Virus record (IMG/VR): IMGVR_UViG_2690316148_000011
DNA length: 14,327 nucleotides
Reading direction: 5' to 3' (one strand)
DNA from: a virus
Lineage: Duplodnaviria; Heunggongvirae; Uroviricota; Caudoviricetes
Within the stretch, counting starts at the first letter, position 1; each line of letters opens with the position of its first letter. Positions 1,401 to 14,145 of the stretch are shown here, one piece after another. The position numbers were made by a program, and so were the translations under genes. The notes below the pieces were generated by a model. That model saw only the letters and a program-made list of their open reading frames with translations. It searched no databases and was not told the DNA's origin.

Positions 1401-1585
1401 CGCCAGCATCCTTTTTGCATCAGACGCAAACGAGCCAGCATTGAAACAATGCATATTTTATTTAATGACTCCCGTTCGTGTTTTCTCTTGTTAATGGCAT
1501 CTTCAGTAAATACCGTGTTACTGATAGTGACACCAATTTCAAAACAACCTTCAGTCGTATTAACGTTTGGTAATAACGTTTCCAT
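1397..1585 (-). CDS. Hypothetical small protein (62 aa), third cistron-linker of the Rha operon
   Basis: ATG at 1583-1585 preceded by GAGGA with about 8 nt spacing, 10 nt after the Rha stop. Its stop overlaps the next start (ATGA). No recognisable domain. Confidence 0.4.
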   Translation of the reverse strand: METLLPNVNTTEGCFEIGVTISNTVFTEDAINKRKHERESLNKICIVSMLARLRLMQKGCWR

Positions 1586-2864: not shown

Positions 2865-3683
2865 TTAAGCAGCCATCTGATGATATTTTTCCCTGAAGGC
2901 TGCCGGGGAGATATTCCCCAGACGAGAGTGACAACGCTGACGATTGTAGAAAATCTCAATGTATTCCCGTATTACTGAGATGGCTTCATCCCGGTTATTA
3001 AAACGATAGTGGCTCAGGCTCTCATTTTTCAGCGTTCCCCAGAAGCTTTCCATCGGAGCGTTGTCGTAACAGTTACCTTTACGCGACATTGATGTTTTCA
3101 GACCAGACTGCTCCTGTATGACCCGGTAATCGTATGCGCAGTACTGTGAACCTCGATCAGAGTGGTGGATTAGCCCGGCAGGTGGGCGCTGGCTCCTGAG
3201 CGCCATAAACAGGGCTTTACCTGTCAGCTCTTTTGTCATGCGCTCTCCCATGGCGTAGCCGACAATTTCGCACGTATAAACATCTTTGATGCCAGCGAGG
3301 TACAACCATCCCTCCTGTGTGGCAACATACGTCAGGTCCGCCACCCAGACCTGATTTGGTGCTGTAGGAGCGAACGTCTGGTTCAGCAGATTTGGCGCAA
3401 CTGGCAGATTGTGGTTCGAGTTCGTAGTCGCTCTGAACTTGCGTTTCTGCTTACAGCGTAGCCTTAGCTCCTTACGAAGACGTGCCAGTCGGTCACGACC
3501 AACGATGATGCCATTCTCTGCCAGCTCCGTCTGGAGCCGCCGGGTTCCATATGTTTCGCGAGTGCGGATATGTGCCACCTTAATCTCCAGTTTTAGCCGC
3601 TCATCACTTTGTTTTCTGTCTGAGGGTTCATGCTGTACCCAGTTGTAATAACCGCTCCTGGATACACCAAATACCTGACACAT
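2865..3683 (-). CDS. IS3-family transposase OrfB (DDE/integrase core), probably expressed as an OrfAB fusion by -1 frameshifting
   Basis: Motifs typical of the IS3 transposase catalytic domain (LIHHSDRGSQYCAYDY, SRKGNCYDNAPMESFW). I translated the orfB frame upstream of the first ATG by hand: it stays open to the A7G slippery run (about 3764-3772) inside orfA and is the -1 frame relative to orfA. Confidence 0.85.
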   Translation of the reverse strand: MCQVFGVSRSGYYNWVQHEPSDRKQSDERLKLEIKVAHIRTRETYGTRRLQTELAENGIIVGRDRLARLRKELRLRCKQKRKFRATTNSNHNLPVAPNLLNQTFAPTAPNQVWVADLTYVATQEGWLYLAGIKDVYTCEIVGYAMGERMTKELTGKALFMALRSQRPPAGLIHHSDRGSQYCAYDYRVIQEQSGLKTSMSRKGNCYDNAPMESFWGTLKNESLSHYRFNNRDEAISVIREYIEIFYNRQRCHSRLGNISPAAFREKYHQMAA

Positions 3684-3718: not shown

Positions 3719-3959
3719 TTAACGCGTATTTTTCAGCGACTCCTGTGCAAAATACGCTGTTGCTTTTTTTAATATATCTCGCTCAAGGCGAGCTTCATTT
3801 AACGCCTTACGCAGTTGCAGAATTTCAGATTCCAGTTCAGCCACCGTGCGGGAACCAGGAGTACCGAGCCCTTTTCTGGCGGCGGTAACCCATTGTCCTA
3901 AAGTGCCTTCAGGAAGAGATAATCGGGAAGCGCCTTCACTGATCGAAAGTTGATTTTCA
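3719..3959 (-). pseudogene. IS3-family OrfA, N-terminally truncated (HTH plus leucine-zipper region retained)
   Basis: Sequence ...LSISEGASRLSLPEGTLGQWV...ELESEILQLRKALNEARLERDILKKATAYF matches the C-terminal two-thirds of IS3-family OrfA. No start codon; the ORF runs into the n at 3960. Confidence 0.7.
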
Positions 3960-3960
3960 N

Positions 3961-4403
3961 ACCGGTCATCACGGAACCCGGCCAGCCTTGCGGTTGCCCT
4001 GCACATCCCACCATAATTTGAATGGAGCTGTGCATTACGCATAAAAAAACCGCTTCAGCGCGGCTATGCGCTCGAGTAACGTTCGGGTTTCCACGCCCGG
4101 CACCCGTTTTATAAGGTGCAGGTGCACTATAATTCCACCCGTTCTGGTTTTCAATAGCTACATTCAACATTTTCTCTCACCTTTCATCACCGAAGTGAAT
4201 TTTGTTGATGCGGTGCCTGGTGCCTCCAGGTGACGTTAACCAGTTAACAATTAACGCCGGATACAGGGAAACCCATAACCACCCGATACGGGGGAACTAA
4301 TCGCTTTTTAACTGTGCCGCGTGCGCTGAGCCGCATTCACCGCATCACAAAATTCACTTTAAAAAGGGCGGACATCAGCCAGCAATGAAACTGATGCCGC
4401 CAA
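3961..4403. repeat. Copy 2 of the ~430-bp duplicated module
   Basis: Aligns with 2241-2672 at a constant offset of 1720 for the first ~280 bp, then a divergent patch, then a second conserved block. Confidence 0.9.
4043..4117 (-). ncRNA. Second copy of the candidate small RNA; no downstream antirepressor gene because the truncated IS abuts it
   Basis: Same promoter hexamers (4125-4153) and a hairpin AGCCGC-GCUGAA-GCGGUU plus U-run at 4043-4065. Relative to copy 1 the changes fall in the loop and convert an A-U pair to G-U. Confidence 0.3.
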
Positions 4404-4601
4404 AGGTACCAATCAACATGGAGTGTTGTGGCGTGGTTGTCACTTAAGCGTATGGTCAACCTGACAACCCGGTGTCCTCAACGGGGAAGGAATAACTCCG
4501 CCATACTTACCGCCGCGTCATTTCGCGTTGTGTGCCTGCTTTTAACCACGTCAGGCGAGGTGGTATCCTTCTTATCCCGAATAACCAAGAAGGAAATCTA
4601 T

Positions 4602-4802
4602 ATGACTAAAGAAGAATTTGTCTCTTATATTTTTGATAAAACGGTTGAAATGTATGCCGCTACTTACGGGTCCTGTAATCCTCTGAATAAACCAGAGGGA
4701 AAAGATGATTTCGACAAAATTTACCGCTTCTTGGAGGACCGCTATATCAAAAGCTTAGAGGACGCAGGGATCAAATCCCCAGTGAAGTCACCATTGTCCT
4801 GA
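4602..4802 (+). CDS. Hypothetical small protein (66 aa)
   Basis: ATG at 4602 preceded by AAGGA with 7 nt spacing; AT-rich; its 3' end overlaps the convergent 125-aa ORF by about 30 nt. No recognisable domain. Confidence 0.45.
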   Translation: MTKEEFVSYIFDKTVEMYAATYGSCNPLNKPEGKDDFDKIYRFLEDRYIKSLEDAGIKSPVKSPLS

Positions 4803-5148
4803 GAACTTGCAGAACGTCATGATCATAACTTCCATCCAAACCGCGACGGCGAATTGCTTCTCGTATTACCGGAAGCAGTTCGCTGGAAATCTCGGTGCAT
4901 ATTTCACCTGATAATACGCTTGGCTCAAGTGAGAATATTGGTGAACTTACGGTCTTGGTCTCGACAGTTTCAGAGTCAGTGCCAACATTATAAAGCTCAA
5001 CGAAAGCGGTCTTGATTTTCCGGGCCAGATCTTTTGCTGGCTCGCTTGCAATATCTTTCCCGATTTCTCGCAGCACAGAATGCAATGTATGAGCTGCTGT
5101 TTTCTGTACATCAGACGGTAAATCTTTAAATTCCATCGTCAGCCTCAT
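4771..5148 (-). CDS. Hypothetical protein (125 aa), second gene of a leftward PL-position operon
   Basis: Start ATG overlaps the stop of the upstream small ORF (TGATG); AT-rich relative to flanking DNA. No recognisable domain. Confidence 0.55.
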   Translation of the reverse strand: MRLTMEFKDLPSDVQKTAAHTLHSVLREIGKDIASEPAKDLARKIKTAFVELYNVGTDSETVETKTVSSPIFSLEPSVLSGEICTEISSELLPVIREAIRRRGLDGSYDHDVLQVLRTMVTSLGI

Positions 5149-5300
5149 CAGTCAGTGTTTCTGGCTAACCAGCAACGCGCGCCAGATTCGGTTTTAAACG
5201 TTTTGCTTTTGGTATACGTCATGGCGGTAAACGTTCCATCCTGGTTAGGGAACACGCCGCACACCAGAGATTCGTTGTTGCCAAGATCGATAGTATCCAT
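5148..5300 (-). CDS. Hypothetical small protein (about 50 aa), first gene of the leftward PL-position operon
   Basis: ATG at 5298-5300 preceded by GGGGA with about 12 nt spacing. The ORF-track version begins further upstream at 5354. Confidence 0.4.
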   Translation of the reverse strand: MDTIDLGNNESLVCGVFPNQDGTFTAMTYTKSKTFKTESGARCWLARNTD

Positions 5301-5479
5301 GCTGACCTCATTTCCCCTTAACGCCGGGGTGGCGGAACAAAAAACCTGCTGCATAGTTAAAGATTGAACCCTGCCGTCATGTTCTTACGCCTCGGGCTGG
5401 CTACTTAACCCCTGACCACTGTCTGGTAACTCGAAGTATTGCCCTGCATTCTGTGGGGCGGGGTGGGTTGACGCCTGAA

Positions 5480-5522
5480 AAAATAGCATCATTATTTTTT
5501 GATGTAAATAGCATCGCTATTG
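5480..5522 (-). promoter_or_regulatory. OL-like region: two 17-bp operator-like palindromes (5481-5497, 5506-5522) overlapping a leftward sigma70-like promoter
   Basis: AAATAGCATCATTATTT and AAATAGCATCGCTATTG, centres 25 bp apart; minus-strand -35 TTTACA (plus 5503-5508) and -10 TATTTT (plus 5480-5485) with 17-nt spacer. Confidence 0.5.
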
Positions 5523-5535
5523 TTTTTGTTGGGGC

Positions 5536-5560
5536 AAGAAAAAACCACCCTAAGGTGGTT
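5536..5560 (-). terminator. Rho-independent terminator downstream of the ParE-like gene (minus strand)
   Basis: Minus-strand AACCACC-UUAG-GGUGGUU hairpin (7-bp stem) followed by UUUUUUCUU, 17 nt after the toxin stop codon. Confidence 0.55.
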
Positions 5561-5576
5561 CTGTCGGCGGGAATAA

Positions 5577-5867
5577 TTAACTGTTTTTGCCTGGATACTG
5601 TCTTCGAGAATGCACAATATTTACTACTTCTATGCTTGATGCTGTTACTCGGTAAAGGATGATGTAGTTAGGATGAGTTACAATTTCACGAAGACCAAGA
5701 ACTCGCTCGCTTGGAGGATACAGGTAAGGATGCTCTGTGAGCGGCAAAACGGATGTTTCAATTCGAATTTTCATTCTGCGTGCTGCCGCGGGATTTTCTT
5801 TAGCTATGTAGGCTACGATCTGGCGCAAATCATCACGAGCAGATGGTAGCCATAAAACGGGTAACAT
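5577..5867 (-). CDS. ParE/RelE-family type II toxin (ParE2-like)
   Basis: 96-aa protein with ParE/RelE-like N-terminus (MLPVLWLPSARDDLRQIVAYI) and C-terminus (IILYRVTASSIEVVNIVHSRRQYP); start overlaps the antitoxin stop (TAATG). Confidence 0.85.
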   Translation of the reverse strand: MLPVLWLPSARDDLRQIVAYIAKENPAAARRMKIRIETSVLPLTEHPYLYPPSERVLGLREIVTHPNYIILYRVTASSIEVVNIVHSRRQYPGKNS

Positions 5868-6061
5868 TATTCACCTCTGTGAGTTGCAGCAGCAATTTGG
5901 GCAATAATTTGTTCCATTTCCGCCATTACCTCATCATGCGGAATCGCCGGGCGGGGATCCGCGAGGCTTGCTGCTACTTTGGCCCGCAGCCATTCGTTGT
6001 AACTATTTTCTTGCTCAACTGTCTCAAATTCTGAAACCATTGGGGAAAGGACTGTACTCAT
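5867..6061 (-). CDS. Small antitoxin, PaaA2-like
   Basis: 64-aa acidic protein immediately upstream of, and translationally coupled to, the ParE-like gene; AGGAG RBS 9 nt upstream. N-terminal SPMVSEFETVEQENSYNEWLRAKVAASLADPRPAIPHDEV resembles the PaaA2 antitoxin of E. coli O157 as I recall it. Confidence 0.75.
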   Translation of the reverse strand: MSTVLSPMVSEFETVEQENSYNEWLRAKVAASLADPRPAIPHDEVMAEMEQIIAQIAAATHRGE

Positions 6062-6080
6062 TTTACATATCTCCTCTGAT

Positions 6081-6581
6081 TTAGGCGCGACGGCCTTTTT
6101 GTGCAGCTAACCACCGCGCAACCGTACGATCCATTGATTCTTTTTTATCTTTCATCTCCTGAAGCATGTGTTCTTGATCTTCTTTCGGAAAAGCTCTGAA
6201 CGTATGGATTAAATCTCGTTCCATCGGCTCTACGGCAAACGGTAGTTCATCCTCTGTTTGTTCTGTGTCTGCTGGTAATGCGACTATGTTATCTTGCTGT
6301 GGTTCTCGACAATACATCCTTGCAATTTGCAGCAAATCTACCATGTCTGGCCTGATTGACTCAGGGGGAACTTTCAGTAAGCCAGCAAACTTTAGAACAG
6401 CCTCAAGGTTTAGTGGGGTTTGACCATTTAGGTAGTGACTTACCGCCCCTTGTGTTGAAAACCCCATAATTTCCGCCGCACGTTCCTGAGTCAATCCCAA
6501 CTGAGATTTCTTTGCCATCCAGATTTCTTTCAGTCTTCTGGCGGCGTTGAGGTCGGTGTCTGACAATGATTTTCTTTTCAT
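6081..6581 (-). CDS. HTH (XRE/cI-like) transcriptional repressor, PaaR2/RacR-like; probable prophage immunity repressor
   Basis: HTH motif LTQERAAEIMGFSTQGAVSHYLNG; no peptidase S24 domain; first gene of the repressor-antitoxin-toxin operon; divergent from a Cro-like gene across an operator-bearing intergenic region. The ORF-track start at 6611 is GTG without an SD, so ATG 6579-6581 was chosen. Confidence 0.75.
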   Translation of the reverse strand: MKRKSLSDTDLNAARRLKEIWMAKKSQLGLTQERAAEIMGFSTQGAVSHYLNGQTPLNLEAVLKFAGLLKVPPESIRPDMVDLLQIARMYCREPQQDNIVALPADTEQTEDELPFAVEPMERDLIHTFRAFPKEDQEHMLQEMKDKKESMDRTVARWLAAQKGRRA

Positions 6582-6615
6582 ACATCCAATTCTAATAAGA
6601 TTGCTAATCACTTTG

Positions 6616-6657
6616 AAATAGCATCACTATTTACTTTTAAAAATAACAGTGCTATTA
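6616..6657. promoter_or_regulatory. OR-like region: two operator-like palindromes (6616-6632; inverted degenerate copy 6641-6657) between the divergent repressor and Cro-like genes
   Basis: AAATAGCATCACTATTT (perfect 6-bp arms) and, on the other strand, AATAGCACTGTTATTTT; centres 25 bp apart, the same spacing as the OL-like pair. Promoter hexamers are only weakly recognisable (for example TTTACT ... ATTAAT). Confidence 0.5.
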
Positions 6658-10509: not shown

Positions 10510-11019
10510 ATGGAAATAAAACCAGAAGATGAGTTAAGCAATATTGTTTTATTTCCGGTAAAAGAGGATAACCCTCGTAATCAGGTTAATTTTCTTTATG
10601 AGCCATCGGAAAGACCATATTGCCATCACGCTTCTGTCCGGGTTGACGAAAAAGAGCGTCAGGTCCGCTGTAAAATNNNNNNNNNNNNNNNNNNNNNNNN
10701 NNNNNNNNNNNNNNNNNNNNNNNNNNNNNNNNNNNNNNNNNNNNNNNNNNNNNNNNNNNNNNNNNNNNNNNNNNNNNNNNNNNNNNNNNNNNNNNNNNNN
10801 NNNNNNNNNNNNNNNNNNNNNNNNNNNNNNNNNNNNNNNNNNNNNNNNNNNTTTGACTGGATGCTCTCTGTGGCGAAAAGAGAAACCAGACTGGCAGATG
10901 ATGTAAGGCTCTTGCGCCAGGAGGAGCGGGAAAGGCGAAAAAATATAGAAAAGCTAATCCAGATTGAGCGTAATGCGAAAGCGCGGATACGCAGGGTGAC
11001 AAAATATAGCCCCGAATAA
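10510..11019 (+). CDS. Hypothetical protein interrupted by an N run; possible Cys/His-containing N-terminal segment
   Basis: ATG at 10510 preceded by AAGGAGAGGAG. The 175-nt N run (10677-10851) is not a multiple of 3, so frame continuity across it is unknown. C-terminal part is charged and coiled-coil-like. Confidence 0.4.
   Translation: MEIKPEDELSNIVLFPVKEDNPRNQVNFLYEPSERPYCHHASVRVDEKERQVRCKXXXXXXXXXXXXXXXXXXXXXXXXXXXXXXXXXXXXXXXXXXXXXXXXXXXXXXXXXXXFDWMLSVAKRETRLADDVRLLRQEERERRKNIEKLIQIERNAKARIRRVTKYSPE
10677..10851. other. Run of 175 N (assembly gap or masked sequence)
   Basis: Literal n characters. Confidence 1.
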
Positions 11020-11233: not shown

Positions 11234-13066
11234 ATGGCCCGCATGTTTGATACATTAGGATTTTACATTATGAATGTGCAACATTTTGATTTTTTTACAG
11301 ATAATGAGTTTTCTAATCTGGAAAGATATCAAACTTGTAAAGCCATGGCCAAAGGTTATGCGGGCAATTACAAAACCGGGCAGTCAAGGTTGATGCATGC
11401 CCGCTCATACTGCTTCAGCATCGTAGCTGCATATTGGGATACCCTTGCAAAAAAGCAAAAAAGCAGCATTAAAATGAGGGCAGTACCGCACACTGTTTAC
11501 ATAGAAGACATTCCATGTGATGCACGCGAGCTCGCTGAACGAACAGGTGAGCTTATTGCTCAATTTCCGGCGGAGGACGCTGGATATCTGATTGGGTCAA
11601 TTTATACGGTAATGCTGCCATCCGCTTACCGTTCGGAATTGGGGGCTTACTATACCCCCCCACCTTTGGTAGCGCGTCTCTTGGACCTGGCTGAAAAGTC
11701 TGGTGTTGATTTTTCTCATGCATCGGTTATTGATCCTGCGTGTGGTGGCGGTGCATTTTTGGCACCAGTAGCCATTCGAATGTTAAAAAAAGACAAGGGG
11801 TCTTCCCCTGAATGGATGTTGAGGAGAATCAGTCGTCGTTTAAAGGGGATAGAAATCGATCCATTTGCGGCTTGGATGAGTTTGGTATTGCTCGAATCTG
11901 TACTAATGCCACTATGTGTAAAGGTAAAACGTAGATTGCCTGAAGATACAATTATTGTTGCTGATGCGCTTCAGCAAGATAAATTTTCTGGTTATGATCT
12001 TGTGGTAGGGAATCCGCCTTACGGACGTGTCACTCTCGATATTAAAACGAGAGAAAAATATTCTCGTTCGTTATTTGGTCATGCAAATCTATATGGATTG
12101 TTCACCGACTTAGCTGTTCGCATGGTTAAAGAGAAAACAGGAGTTATTGCATTTCTTACGCCAACTTCTTTTCTTGGTGGGCAGTATTTCACCGCGCTGC
12201 GAACCCTTTTGACCGAAAAAACTACTCCGTATGCCCTTGATTTCGTCACTGACAGGGATGGGGTCTTTGACGATGTTCTCCAGGAAACAATGTTGACAGC
12301 ATTCAAGGCGGGAGAACATAAAGTTCGGGCCCAGGTATCCTCACTTGTCCCTAAGGGGTTGAACAAAGCAAAAATTGAGAAAATAGGTAATGTTGATATA
12401 GAAAAAGGTGGAGCAACGTGGCTTTTGCCACGCGTTAAAGATGATGCCTGTTTTCTTAATGTATTAAAACAGATGTCTACGCGTTTAGCTGATCTGGGAT
12501 ACTCAGTCTCTACAGGTCAGTTAGTCTGGAATCGATTTAAGTCGCAGTTGCGTACGACGAAAGGAAAAAATAGCTACCCATTAGTCTGGGCGGAATCAAT
12601 AACTTCAGCTGGTTTTCGTTTTAGTGCAGACAGAAAAAATCATGTTCCCTATATCGATATAACCCCACAACAGGGTTTCCTTGTGACAAAATCTGAATGT
12701 GTGCTTGTTCAGCGGACAACATCGAAGGAACAGGACAGAAGGATTTTAGCGGCAATTTTACCTCAGGGATTTATAGATGAAACTGGTGGCGTAGTAGTTG
12801 AAAACCATATTAATATTGTATATTCAAACGGATTGTTCTCTGCGGTTCGCCCTGATGTTATTGATATGCTACTTAATTCGCATGTTGTCGATCGGGCGTT
12901 CAGGTGTATAAGCGGAAGTGTTGCTGTTTCGGCCTATGAATTGAATTCAATCCCGTTGCCTTCTCTGGAGCAGGTGATGGAGATTCAATCGTTAATTGAT
13001 GCTGGCGTCCACAGACGGATTATTGAGAGAACTATCGCTGGTTTCTATGGAGTGATGATTGCATGA
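11234..13066 (+). CDS. N6-adenine DNA methyltransferase, gamma-class (motif I before motif IV), Type II R-M modification subunit
   Basis: Motif X/I YYTPPPLVARLLDLA ... VIDPACGGGAFL followed by motif IV VVGNPPYGRV; long C-terminal region consistent with a target-recognition domain. AT-rich compared with the prophage core. Start uncertain: ATG 11234 (weak SD) or ATG 11269 (AGGA upstream). Confidence 0.85.
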   Translation: MARMFDTLGFYIMNVQHFDFFTDNEFSNLERYQTCKAMAKGYAGNYKTGQSRLMHARSYCFSIVAAYWDTLAKKQKSSIKMRAVPHTVYIEDIPCDARELAERTGELIAQFPAEDAGYLIGSIYTVMLPSAYRSELGAYYTPPPLVARLLDLAEKSGVDFSHASVIDPACGGGAFLAPVAIRMLKKDKGSSPEWMLRRISRRLKGIEIDPFAAWMSLVLLESVLMPLCVKVKRRLPEDTIIVADALQQDKFSGYDLVVGNPPYGRVTLDIKTREKYSRSLFGHANLYGLFTDLAVRMVKEKTGVIAFLTPTSFLGGQYFTALRTLLTEKTTPYALDFVTDRDGVFDDVLQETMLTAFKAGEHKVRAQVSSLVPKGLNKAKIEKIGNVDIEKGGATWLLPRVKDDACFLNVLKQMSTRLADLGYSVSTGQLVWNRFKSQLRTTKGKNSYPLVWAESITSAGFRFSADRKNHVPYIDITPQQGFLVTKSECVLVQRTTSKEQDRRILAAILPQGFIDETGGVVVENHINIVYSNGLFSAVRPDVIDMLLNSHVVDRAFRCISGSVAVSAYELNSIPLPSLEQVMEIQSLIDAGVHRRIIERTIAGFYGVMIA

Positions 13067-14145
13067 ATCTGCCTGTTGTTCCCCCATTGAATGTTATCCG
13101 GGAAAGATTACAATTAATTTTCCCTGAAGGGACTGAGAATCGTGGATATTTAATTCGGGAAATAGCTGCAAAAACAATTTTTGTCATGTTTTATGCTGGT
13201 GCGGTTGAGGGGCTGGGGCGATGGATAAGGCCCAGCCAGGTTGTAAGTATGGGAGATTCGCAGGCTGCTCTTACTGATGATGCGTCCAGAGAAAGCTGGG
13301 TAAAGATGACTTTCTCTAAACAAAAGATAAGGCCTGCTGATGCATGGTATGCGGAAAATACGCGTGAGCCAATACGTGATGAAACTATAAAAAATGGCCT
13401 AATACCTTGCAATGCAATTGTTGAGCGTAAAGGTATACCCACCACATCCTCTCGTCCTCGTTACAGTTTGAATCGCTCTTTTGCAGCACTCTTTGATGCC
13501 GGGCTTGAAGGAGATTCGCTGCTGAGTGCAATAAGTTCCTGGCAAGAAAATCATTTGAACAAAGCCGCTCTTGCTAGGTTGCGTTTATTGAAATCAGGGG
13601 CAGTGATTGCTGCTGATGCCGTAGTCGTCACTTTCCCAAATGGAGAGAAGAGAACTTTAGCTCCGGGCCCGTCAAGTACAATAGCTAAGGCCGTCATCGA
13701 AGTTTTTGCTCCTAATTTTCTTAAGAATCCAACTGTGCTCTGGTTGTCTGAATCCGGGAATAAAGTTGTTGCTCAGGATGATGTATTGGCAAAAGCATTG
13801 GGGCTGAATATTGATGCCTCAAAAGCACTTCCAGATATTATTTTGATTGATTTGGGAGAGGACCGAACGGGTTCGGACATGCTTGTAGTTTTCACTGAAG
13901 TAGTTGCGACAGATGGGCCTATAAACAGGGAACGAAAAGTTACTCTCACTCATTTGGCTATTGACGCTGGGTTCAGCGAGAAAAATCTTGCATTCCTTAC
14001 GGCATTTATGGACAGAAGTGCTCTGCCTTTTAAAAAGGCAATACCAGAATTGGCGTGGGGATCTTATGCATGGTTTGCTTCTGAACCGGAGCACTTAATT
14101 GATCTTCGGGATGGTTATCCGGTAAAGATCAGCCAGAGAAAATGA
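13063..14145 (+). CDS. Putative restriction endonuclease partner of the methyltransferase (possibly BsuBI/PstI-like; unverified)
   Basis: 360-aa ORF whose ATG overlaps the methyltransferase stop (ATGA) with GGAG upstream; same AT-rich composition; size and position typical of a Type II endonuclease. No catalytic motif could be assigned confidently by eye. Confidence 0.5.
   Translation: MNLPVVPPLNVIRERLQLIFPEGTENRGYLIREIAAKTIFVMFYAGAVEGLGRWIRPSQVVSMGDSQAALTDDASRESWVKMTFSKQKIRPADAWYAENTREPIRDETIKNGLIPCNAIVERKGIPTTSSRPRYSLNRSFAALFDAGLEGDSLLSAISSWQENHLNKAALARLRLLKSGAVIAADAVVVTFPNGEKRTLAPGPSSTIAKAVIEVFAPNFLKNPTVLWLSESGNKVVAQDDVLAKALGLNIDASKALPDIILIDLGEDRTGSDMLVVFTEVVATDGPINRERKVTLTHLAIDAGFSEKNLAFLTAFMDRSALPFKKAIPELAWGSYAWFASEPEHLIDLRDGYPVKISQRK

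Follow-up and report, generated by a model that had tools for sequence, protein, structure and literature searches.

The early-left operons of lambdoid prophages are well known for carrying genes for host takeover, exclusion and anti-defence. One of the closest described examples to the locus treated here is the dicBF operon of the Qin prophage of Escherichia coli K-12 (ydfA-ydfB-ydfC-dicF-dicB-ydfD-ydfE), which is repressed by DicA and whose ydfABC genes are given as uncharacterised in the dicBF papers of 2016 and 2023 (PMC5069750, PMC10448788). Another is prophage CP-933P of O157:H7, in which the leftward promoter PL933P lies downstream of paaR2-paaA2-parE2 and is repressed ∼100-fold by PaaR2 and YdaS (Jurenas et al. 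2021, PMC8630535). The Rac prophage has a comparable arrangement, with racR-ydaG-ydaF facing sieB-kilS-kilR. The sole paper that examined a related locus assigned no function to it.

We analysed a 14,327-nt stretch of DNA, the IMG/VR virus record IMGVR_UViG_2690316148_000011 (Caudoviricetes), referred to below as the window, and within it a cassette of three small genes at positions 4602 to 5300. It belongs to a dicBF-type early-left operon, of which it is the promoter-proximal part, in an E. coli prophage resembling Qin and CP-933P; this operon controls the toxic products DicF and DicB. An earlier reading of the letters, made without database searches (the sequence-only reading), had picked out three small open reading frames (ORFs) here, and all three are real: a plus-strand frame of 66 aa (4602-4802), a minus-strand frame at 4771-5148 and a minus-strand frame of 50 aa starting at 5300. 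We call the first gene w66 and the second, which codes for a protein of 121 aa, w121; the third is a homologue of ydfA. Sequence comparison shows w66 and the C-terminal domain of w121 to be a conserved, jointly inherited convergent gene pair with overlapping 3' ends.

The convergent w66 and w121 genes

The w66 gene occupies 4602-4802 on the plus strand (phrog_34441, E 2e-49), with the Shine-Dalgarno (SD) sequence AAGGA 8 nt upstream of its start, and w121 runs against it at 4771-5136 on the minus strand (phrog_33007, E 4.9e-80). The w121 protein is composed of an N-domain (residues 1-53, minus strand 4978-5136) and, after a disordered linker, a C-domain (about residues 67-121, minus strand 4774-4938). 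The two genes share 32 nt at their 3' ends (4771-4802, both strands), close to the ∼30 nt given by the sequence-only reading, and the proteins end in ...VKSPLS and ...TMVTSLGI, each followed by its stop. It is within this overlap that both families are most conserved, VKSPL being encoded by one strand and M-x-TSL by the opposite one.

A w66 homologue facing a convergent C-domain, with the same overlap, was found at all 64 informative loci in IMG/VR and GTDB genomes; most of these are close relatives with near-identical sequences, and the independent evidence comes from about five lineages. At loci L007/L008, L015 and L016, w66 is 49-65% identical and the C-terminal half of its partner is 33-44% identical to that of w121, the partners having 123-129 aa, overlapping w66 by 38-56 nt and adjoining S24-type repressors. 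In Cedecea (L005/L006), a w66 homologue of 71% identity sits antisense between cro and a cII-like gene, in the early-right operon, and is overlapped by an uncalled stand-alone ORF that has an AGGAG SD and consists of the C-domain only (61% identity, tblastn). The C-domain is under purifying selection: nonsynonymous divergence (dN) in the Cedecea ORF is 0.29 with synonymous sites saturated, and both remaining frames have stops and ratios above 1. The divergence order of the lineages is the same for w66 as for its C-domain partner, and the pair is retained across four repressor types.

YdfA does not follow this pattern. The idea that the 50-aa and the longer minus-strand ORF form a co-occurring pair did not hold up, since YdfA is found without w121 in K-12 and in E. 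coli RMDEC465, both of which have YdfB/YdfC, and w121 and w66 are found without YdfA at six loci at least. The conserved pair is w66 with the w121 C-domain, not YdfA with w121. As a portable and convergent module, w66 and the C-domain appear undescribed.

By its substitution pattern, w66 is a real gene under purifying selection. The ratio of nonsynonymous to synonymous divergence (dN/dS) is 0.13-0.28 against homologues of 54-71% identity, with synonymous sites saturated, and this holds for codons 1-56 outside the overlap; ORF length over the same range of identity and the SD are conserved as well. The protein is acidic (isoelectric point 5.0), and AlphaFold2 (AF2) predicts a helical hairpin (H3-21/H31-54) with a short tail at a predicted local distance difference test (pLDDT) score of 75. 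The family is tiny, with 10 members at E<=1e-10 when its profile was run against 1.84 billion representative proteins, the other matches being long repetitive proteins. Its most divergent member, found at L013 (1860-2238) and L014 (314-692), has 73 aa, 46% identity and a different C-terminal tail; it shares a 35-nt overlap with the 63-aa gene that opens the early-left operon after the repressor. At loci L079-L082, which begin ∼15-60 nt upstream of the match, only residues 7-66 of w66 are matched, at 90% identity, and the same divergent N-terminus, MSWSHYQTVE... instead of MTKEEFVSYIFDKTVE..., is seen in P0029, the homologue from Shigella sonnei. In that lineage the 5' end of w66 thus seems to have undergone replacement or disruption, with the w121 gene and ydfA intact.

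The sequence-only reading had given w121 125 aa and had coupled its translation to that of ydfA through a TGATG stop/start overlap. The minus-strand frame does read 4771-5148, for 125 aa if started at 5148, and the TGATG is present at 5146-5150. However, w121 likely starts at 5136, 12 nt inside the longer reading, because every homologue begins MEFK[DE]LP and RefSeq annotates 121 aa; the start at 5136 lies 11 nt past the ydfA stop and has its own GAGG SD. The overlap itself therefore stands, while coupling through it depends on a start that is probably unused.

AF2 folds w121 into four helices forming two hairpins (H8-25/H32-50 and H77-97/H104-118) on either side of the disordered linker, with a mean pLDDT of 72.8; the predicted C-domain is an acidic helical hairpin of ∼50 aa. 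Profile comparison of the C-domain with w66 gave no similarity, pairwise comparison of w121 with YdfB, YdfC and YdaG gave none either, and neither w66 nor w121 has a transmembrane or hydrophobic segment (maximum 19-residue hydropathy 0.31 and 1.02). The N-terminal 55 residues of w121 also match phrog_9419, phrog_1363, phrog_2151 and phrog_6937, none of which is annotated. Proteins that share only the N-domain carry unrelated C-termini and are always encoded by gene 1 or 2 after the repressor in the early-left operon (four lineages; L009 4001-4369, L010 4001-4294, L011 4001-4585, L012 4001-4453). At L010 and L011, a different convergent gene overlaps the 3' end of the N-domain gene; the convergent genes in this slot at L010, L011 and L017 have no match to any known family.

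The archaeal histone HMfB was considered for the N-domain and rejected. The matches, at E 0.044 in NCBIfam and 0.13 in the PDB profile search, were not significant (local motif EIGKDIASEPAKDLAR against EMGRDIASEAIKLAR), and the AF2 model breaks the helix at a point where the histone helix is continuous. The w121 coding region also contains an inverted repeat at 4849-4883, with 17-nt arms that are 82% complementary and 1 nt between them. It lies 47 nt beyond the w66 stop and, with no T-run after it, does not qualify as a classical terminator; for the Cedecea copy, too, a hairpin of this sort can be drawn.

The w66 gene is antisense to every neighbouring gene and so needs its own promoter. Alignment of five lineages, Cedecea included, shows a conserved element upstream of it (4545-4594, plus strand), which begins in the window with the hairpin ACCAC-N10-GTGGT (4545-4564, plus strand). 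The form conserved across lineages is a CCACC-loop-GGTGG hairpin followed by TGGTATCCT, and it accompanies w66 into its Cedecea context. The invariant TGGTATCCT (4561-4569) is a candidate extended -10 element (TGn + TATCCT). Alternatively, the element could be a structure of the 5' untranslated region (UTR) in which UCCUU pairs with the SD: pairing of TCCTTCTT (4566-4573) with AAGAAGGA (4587-4594) could sequester the w66 SD, and RNAalifold gives 17 pairs, 3 of them with compensatory changes. At L013, a consensus TATAAT stands upstream of the w66 homologue in place of the element.

Searches of Pfam, NCBIfam, PHROGs and PADLOC with all three cassette proteins returned a single informative family, DUF1391, for the YdfA homologue; the matched PHROG families are unannotated. 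None of the three proteins had a match in PADLOC-DB at E up to 0.1 or in a sequence search of the PDB, and Foldseek of the w66 model against BFVD and the PDB gave nothing at E<1. Matches to Dynein_light and Zn_ribbon_16 were sub-threshold and were discounted. A Rop-like RNA-binding hairpin, considered for w66 in view of the architecture of Rop, was also dropped, Rop not being returned by the structure search. The sequence-only reading could place none of the three ORFs in a known family; this was wrong for the 50-aa ORF, which belongs with YdfA/YdaF in DUF1391, and it remains right that the function of all three is undescribed.

The cassette is no rarity. At 97-98% identity over at least 80% of its length it is present in 391 of 5,426 complete E. 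coli genomes (∼7%), among them B/BL21 derivatives and E. coli C, and in the E. coli B strains it lies inside Qin itself, adjoining rspAB-ynfA. Of the 50,697 phage records searched, a single one has it, that of the functional temperate phage mEp460 (PMC10448788). The cassette sequences are thus not new, being widespread and already annotated as hypothetical: w66 and w121, the genes outside DUF1391, are called 'hypothetical protein' in every annotation, and the RefSeq protein accessions of the cassette genes gave no literature match.

The early-left operon and its control region

The ydfA homologue (5148-5300, minus strand) is the first gene after the PL-like promoter. Its 50-aa product matches PF07151 (DUF1391) with 97.5 bits against a cut-off of 27.3 (E 3.3e-28, model positions 1-47 of 48) and is 90% identical to YdfA of K-12 Qin; RefSeq labels it 'DUF1391 family protein' in homologous loci. 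The ATG at 5300 has a GAGG SD, and an alternative 68-aa reading from 5354 has no SD. In its length of ∼50 aa, as an early gene after the repressor and in its position, it corresponds to ydfA of K-12 Qin and to ydaF of Rac, whose product belongs to the same DUF1391 family. Homology to YdaF-type proteins, which the sequence-only reading had named as the result that would speak against it, was therefore found for this ORF; since the family has no known role, the match names the ORF and leaves it unexplained. The literature search on DUF1391 yielded a single genome-wide association paper. The 'ydfA' of PMC12111858 is another gene, located on the Salmonella plasmid pUA1135 and co-transcribed with ibfA, and does not belong to the prophage family. 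A role as N-like antiterminator was considered for this first early-left gene and set aside, as an arginine-rich motif is lacking. As the first gene of early-left operons of this kind, YdfA stands apart from the pair and is more widespread.

Four copies of the palindrome AATAGC-N3-GCTATT lie in the window, at 5482-5496, 5507-5521, 6617-6631 and 6642-6656, a count reached in none of 200 shuffles. They form two pairs with the same internal spacing of 25 nt. The left pair (OL-like operators, 5482-5521, no strand assigned) is located between parE2 and the cassette, and the right pair (6617-6656) lies between the repressor gene and the cro-like gene. A PL-like sigma-70 promoter candidate (5480-5508, minus strand; TTTACA-17 nt-TATTTT, with TG before the -10), identified by consensus match only, overlaps the left pair. 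The OL-like operators and PL-like promoter of the sequence-only reading were thus recovered, and so was its lambdoid PL position: operators shared between the OR region and a site beyond the repressor and toxin-antitoxin genes, overlapped by a leftward promoter-like sequence, resemble the CP-933P layout with its repressible PL933P (PMC8630535). The cassette is in the PL position of a lambdoid prophage.

The repressor gene (6081-6611, minus strand) codes for a PaaR2-like helix-turn-helix protein. It is separated from the PL-like promoter by the genes for the PaaA2 antitoxin (5867-6061, minus strand; PF21217, E 3e-23) and the ParE2 toxin (5577-5867, minus strand; PF05016, E 1.8e-17), which together span 5577-6061, and by a terminator-like hairpin after parE (5538-5565). 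The region 5577-6611 is a three-component paaR-paaA-parE module, and this immunity and toxin-antitoxin allele recurs at 99% identity in only two of the 5,426 complete genomes of E. coli, the remaining matches listed being ∼80% identical. Further to the right of the repressor lie a YdaS-like cro equivalent and YdaT on the plus strand. No LexA-box-like site (CTGT-N8-CAG) is present near the cassette, the sole match in the window being at 404-418.

Aligned with K-12, the window is homologous at ydfA (5157-5338) and in the dicF region (4196-4527); the intervening 629 bp (4528-5156), which contain w66 and w121, have no K-12 counterpart. K-12 has ydfB-ydfC instead, and the sequence between ydfA and dicF in the window has no protein or DNA similarity to these genes; the mosaic junctions are at ∼4527 and ∼5157. 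RMDEC465 (L017) has the immunity and toxin-antitoxin allele of the window, yet carries ydfA-ydfB-ydfC, and a 116-aa gene without a known family (5061-5411 of L017, plus strand) is convergent with its ydfC in the same slot as w66. This suggests that the slot is a general hotspot for antisense accessory genes.

Outside the cassette, to the left of w66 and downstream in the same leftward operon, lies a DicF-like small RNA (sRNA; 4366-4414, minus strand), which scores 38.8 bits against Rfam RF00039, under the gathering score of 48 (E 1.5e-6). The region is 83% identical in nucleotides to the K-12 dicF region and includes a terminator-like hairpin (4398-4371). The RNA differs in its 5' part and loop and could be a functional variant whose targets have changed. 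The dicB gene (1406-1585, minus strand; 90% identity to K-12 DicB over 60 aa, tblastn) is ∼2.8 kb to the left of the DicF-like sRNA, beyond an insertion with an IS3-family element (orfB 2865-3683; orfA 3719-4042, containing one N) and a Rha/Ash gene. The IS3-family element is flanked by two copies of a 365-nt segment (2321-2672 and 4041-4403, 88.8% identity), each beginning with an isrK-like RNA (2323-2399 and 4043-4119). After the left copy come a C4 antisense RNA (2211-2298) and the Rha/Ash regulatory gene (1596-2450). The duplication could stem from recombination between two prophages or be an assembly artefact.

The AT-richness that the sequence-only reading saw in the cassette is marginal. 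GC content is 0.445 against 0.478 for the window, at the 19th percentile of 699-nt windows, and equals that of the neighbouring repressor and toxin-antitoxin genes (0.45); only w66, at 0.40, stands out among the cassette genes. Runs of N (assembly gaps) at 991-1266, 3960 and 10677-10851 explain apparent dips in GC to 0.14-0.24; the exonuclease/ydfD region is broken by one of these gaps. At its right end the window has a type II restriction-modification pair (11234-14145, plus strand), in which a 610-aa methyltransferase of Eco57I/N6_Mtase type precedes a 360-aa endonuclease of the BsuBI/PstI family, the two frames overlapping by 4 nt.

Possible functions of the pair

In sieB/esc of P22 and lambda and in rexAB/ren of lambda, an exclusion function expressed by the prophage is matched by an early product that exempts the phage's own development; esc arises from an internal start in sieB and is not convergent with it. 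We tentatively favour a related reading of the pair, in which w66 would be a protein of the lysogenic state and the C-domain its immediate-early partner or antagonist, the two being mutually exclusive and serving an accessory function with self-immunity. The w66 gene would be transcribed from its own promoter in the repressed prophage. Lying in the immediate-early operon, w121 would be off in the lysogen and made only once PL fires, upon induction or infection. Being transcribed head-on and complementary at their 3' ends, the two genes would be expressed in a mutually exclusive way. As small helical hairpins, w66 and the C-domain would bind each other; the immediate-early protein would neutralise w66, and lytic growth of the phage itself would escape the w66 effect. 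The likeliest output would be an accessory 'moron' function, for instance one that excludes other phages or modulates the host, on the logic of sieB/esc or rex/ren. For w66 an analogy of position can be drawn, because sieB of Rac, a prophage-expressed exclusion gene, and the convergent gene of RMDEC465 occupy the same slot. The exclusion, kil or anti-defence role that the sequence-only reading linked with this position is a guess. It is improbable that the pair goes further and forms a two-protein latch of a novel type in temperate phages, in which a lysogenic marker and an immediate-early protein would antagonise each other at the levels of transcription, RNA and protein and control exclusion or commitment, portable across operons and immunity types.

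Several results weigh against the favoured reading. At L013/L014, the w66 homologue faces a 63-aa gene without detectable similarity to the C-domain (hhalign E 0.13); the partner has here either diverged very far or been replaced. Overlapping genes are hard to separate physically, and so co-inheritance alone is no proof of a functional link. No homology or fold match indicates any function, and the AF2 models are of medium confidence, with shallow alignments (pLDDT 73-75, predicted template modelling score 0.35-0.44). The w66 promoter is only a weak consensus match that a generic promoter scan did not list, and the -10 and 5' UTR readings of its upstream element are incompatible with each other. 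A terminator scan found no intrinsic terminator after w66, and its transcript may thus run antisense through w121 and ydfA towards PL. As to the analogy with Rac, w66 and SieB are not homologues (hhalign aligns 10 columns at E 0.12, and neither Pfam nor PHROG links them), and w66 is a soluble protein of 66 aa whereas SieB is a membrane protein of 162 aa.

The same conservation of the pair would be expected if w121, through its C-domain, were an immediate-early inhibitor for host takeover of the Kil or DicB kind and w66 the antidote that buffers leaky PL in the lysogen, with the antisense 3' ends acting as an RNA brake. The early-left operon of Rac carries the RalR/RalA pair, and here an N-domain family with variable C-termini, accompanied at L010 and L011 by another convergent gene, resembles a conserved head with a variable effector and its cognate partner. 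The operon also carries known toxic products, namely DicF, DicB and YdfD (PMC5069750; PMC10448788). However, neither protein resembles a toxin or antitoxin family in Pfam, NCBIfam or PADLOC, the genes are convergent and not bicistronic or co-transcribed as in type II systems, and w66 has no DNA-binding domain. A type I system does not fit either, given a protein-coding w66 under purifying selection and no hydrophobic segment in either protein, and the C-domain, as an acidic hairpin of ∼50 aa, has no catalytic or membrane features. We consider a toxin and antidote unlikely. Somewhat less doubtful is that the cassette holds three unrelated accessory genes, the functions of w66 and w121 being independent and the two linked only by their overlap in an exchangeable cassette at a recombination hotspot. 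The slot is indeed highly mosaic, with ydfB-ydfC in K-12, the 116-aa gene in RMDEC465, sieB in Rac and the junctions given above, most of the co-occurring loci are near-identical, and the partner at L013/L014 is not detectably a C-domain. Even so, the pair persists down to 49% identity in w66 and 33% in the C-domain and across four repressor types, and it was kept after a move to the early-right operon in which the N-domain was shed and the C-domain retained. Linkage alone is not expected to survive such rearrangements, which counts against independent functions.

Finally, w66 might matter mainly as a transcription unit, whose head-on promoter and antisense RNA would, in the lysogen, limit the transcription that runs on from PL into the toxic genes dicF and dicB. 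The convergent orientation and complementary 3' ends, the lack of a detected w66 terminator before PL and the place of w66 just upstream of DicF agree with this, and K-12 dicBF transcripts are processed by RNase III (PMC10448788). But the strong purifying selection on the w66 protein, also outside the overlap, and the conserved ORF length and SD point to the protein itself, and the Cedecea module is not upstream of dicF or dicB; we regard this explanation as very unlikely.

What has been gained over three unassigned ORFs is one conserved, portable convergent gene pair and with it a specific hypothesis open to inexpensive testing. If it is an exclusion and self-immunity module, or a toxin and antidote, a small-protein system would be added to the prophage repertoire, and the phage sensitivity or stress behaviour of BL21 might be affected; if it gives no phenotype, it is ordinary prophage mosaic filler. 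The lead is a modest one overall, unsurprising in kind, but it is concrete and can be tested in BL21, E. coli C and mEp460.

Comparison with known prophage systems

With sieB/esc and rexAB/ren, the pair has in common only the proposed logic, without similarity in sequence or fold. With dicBF of Qin the likeness is in operon type and position. In place of the K-12 genes ydfB-ydfC, the window has the unrelated w121 and the antisense w66, K-12 has no annotated gene on the opposite strand at the position of w66, and K-12 uses DicA where the window has a PaaR2-like repressor with ParE2/PaaA2.

CP-933P shares with the window the repressor, PaaA2, ParE2, operators, a leftward promoter followed by small uncharacterised ORFs, and YdaS/YdaT-like genes to the right. 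The operators themselves differ, being AATAGC-N3-GCTATT here, whereas the published repeat consensus of CP-933P is GTTTAGTAA.

The w121 protein lacks similarity to YdaG of Rac, a prophage that is otherwise close in architecture. In both prophages, a repressor is followed by small ORFs that include a DUF1391 gene and by a convergent plus-strand gene with overlapping 3' ends, beyond which come an sRNA and then a cell-division inhibitor. In Rac, the convergent gene is sieB, which overlaps the DUF1391 gene ydaF by 4 nt at the 3' ends, and it is the sieB slot that w66 occupies.

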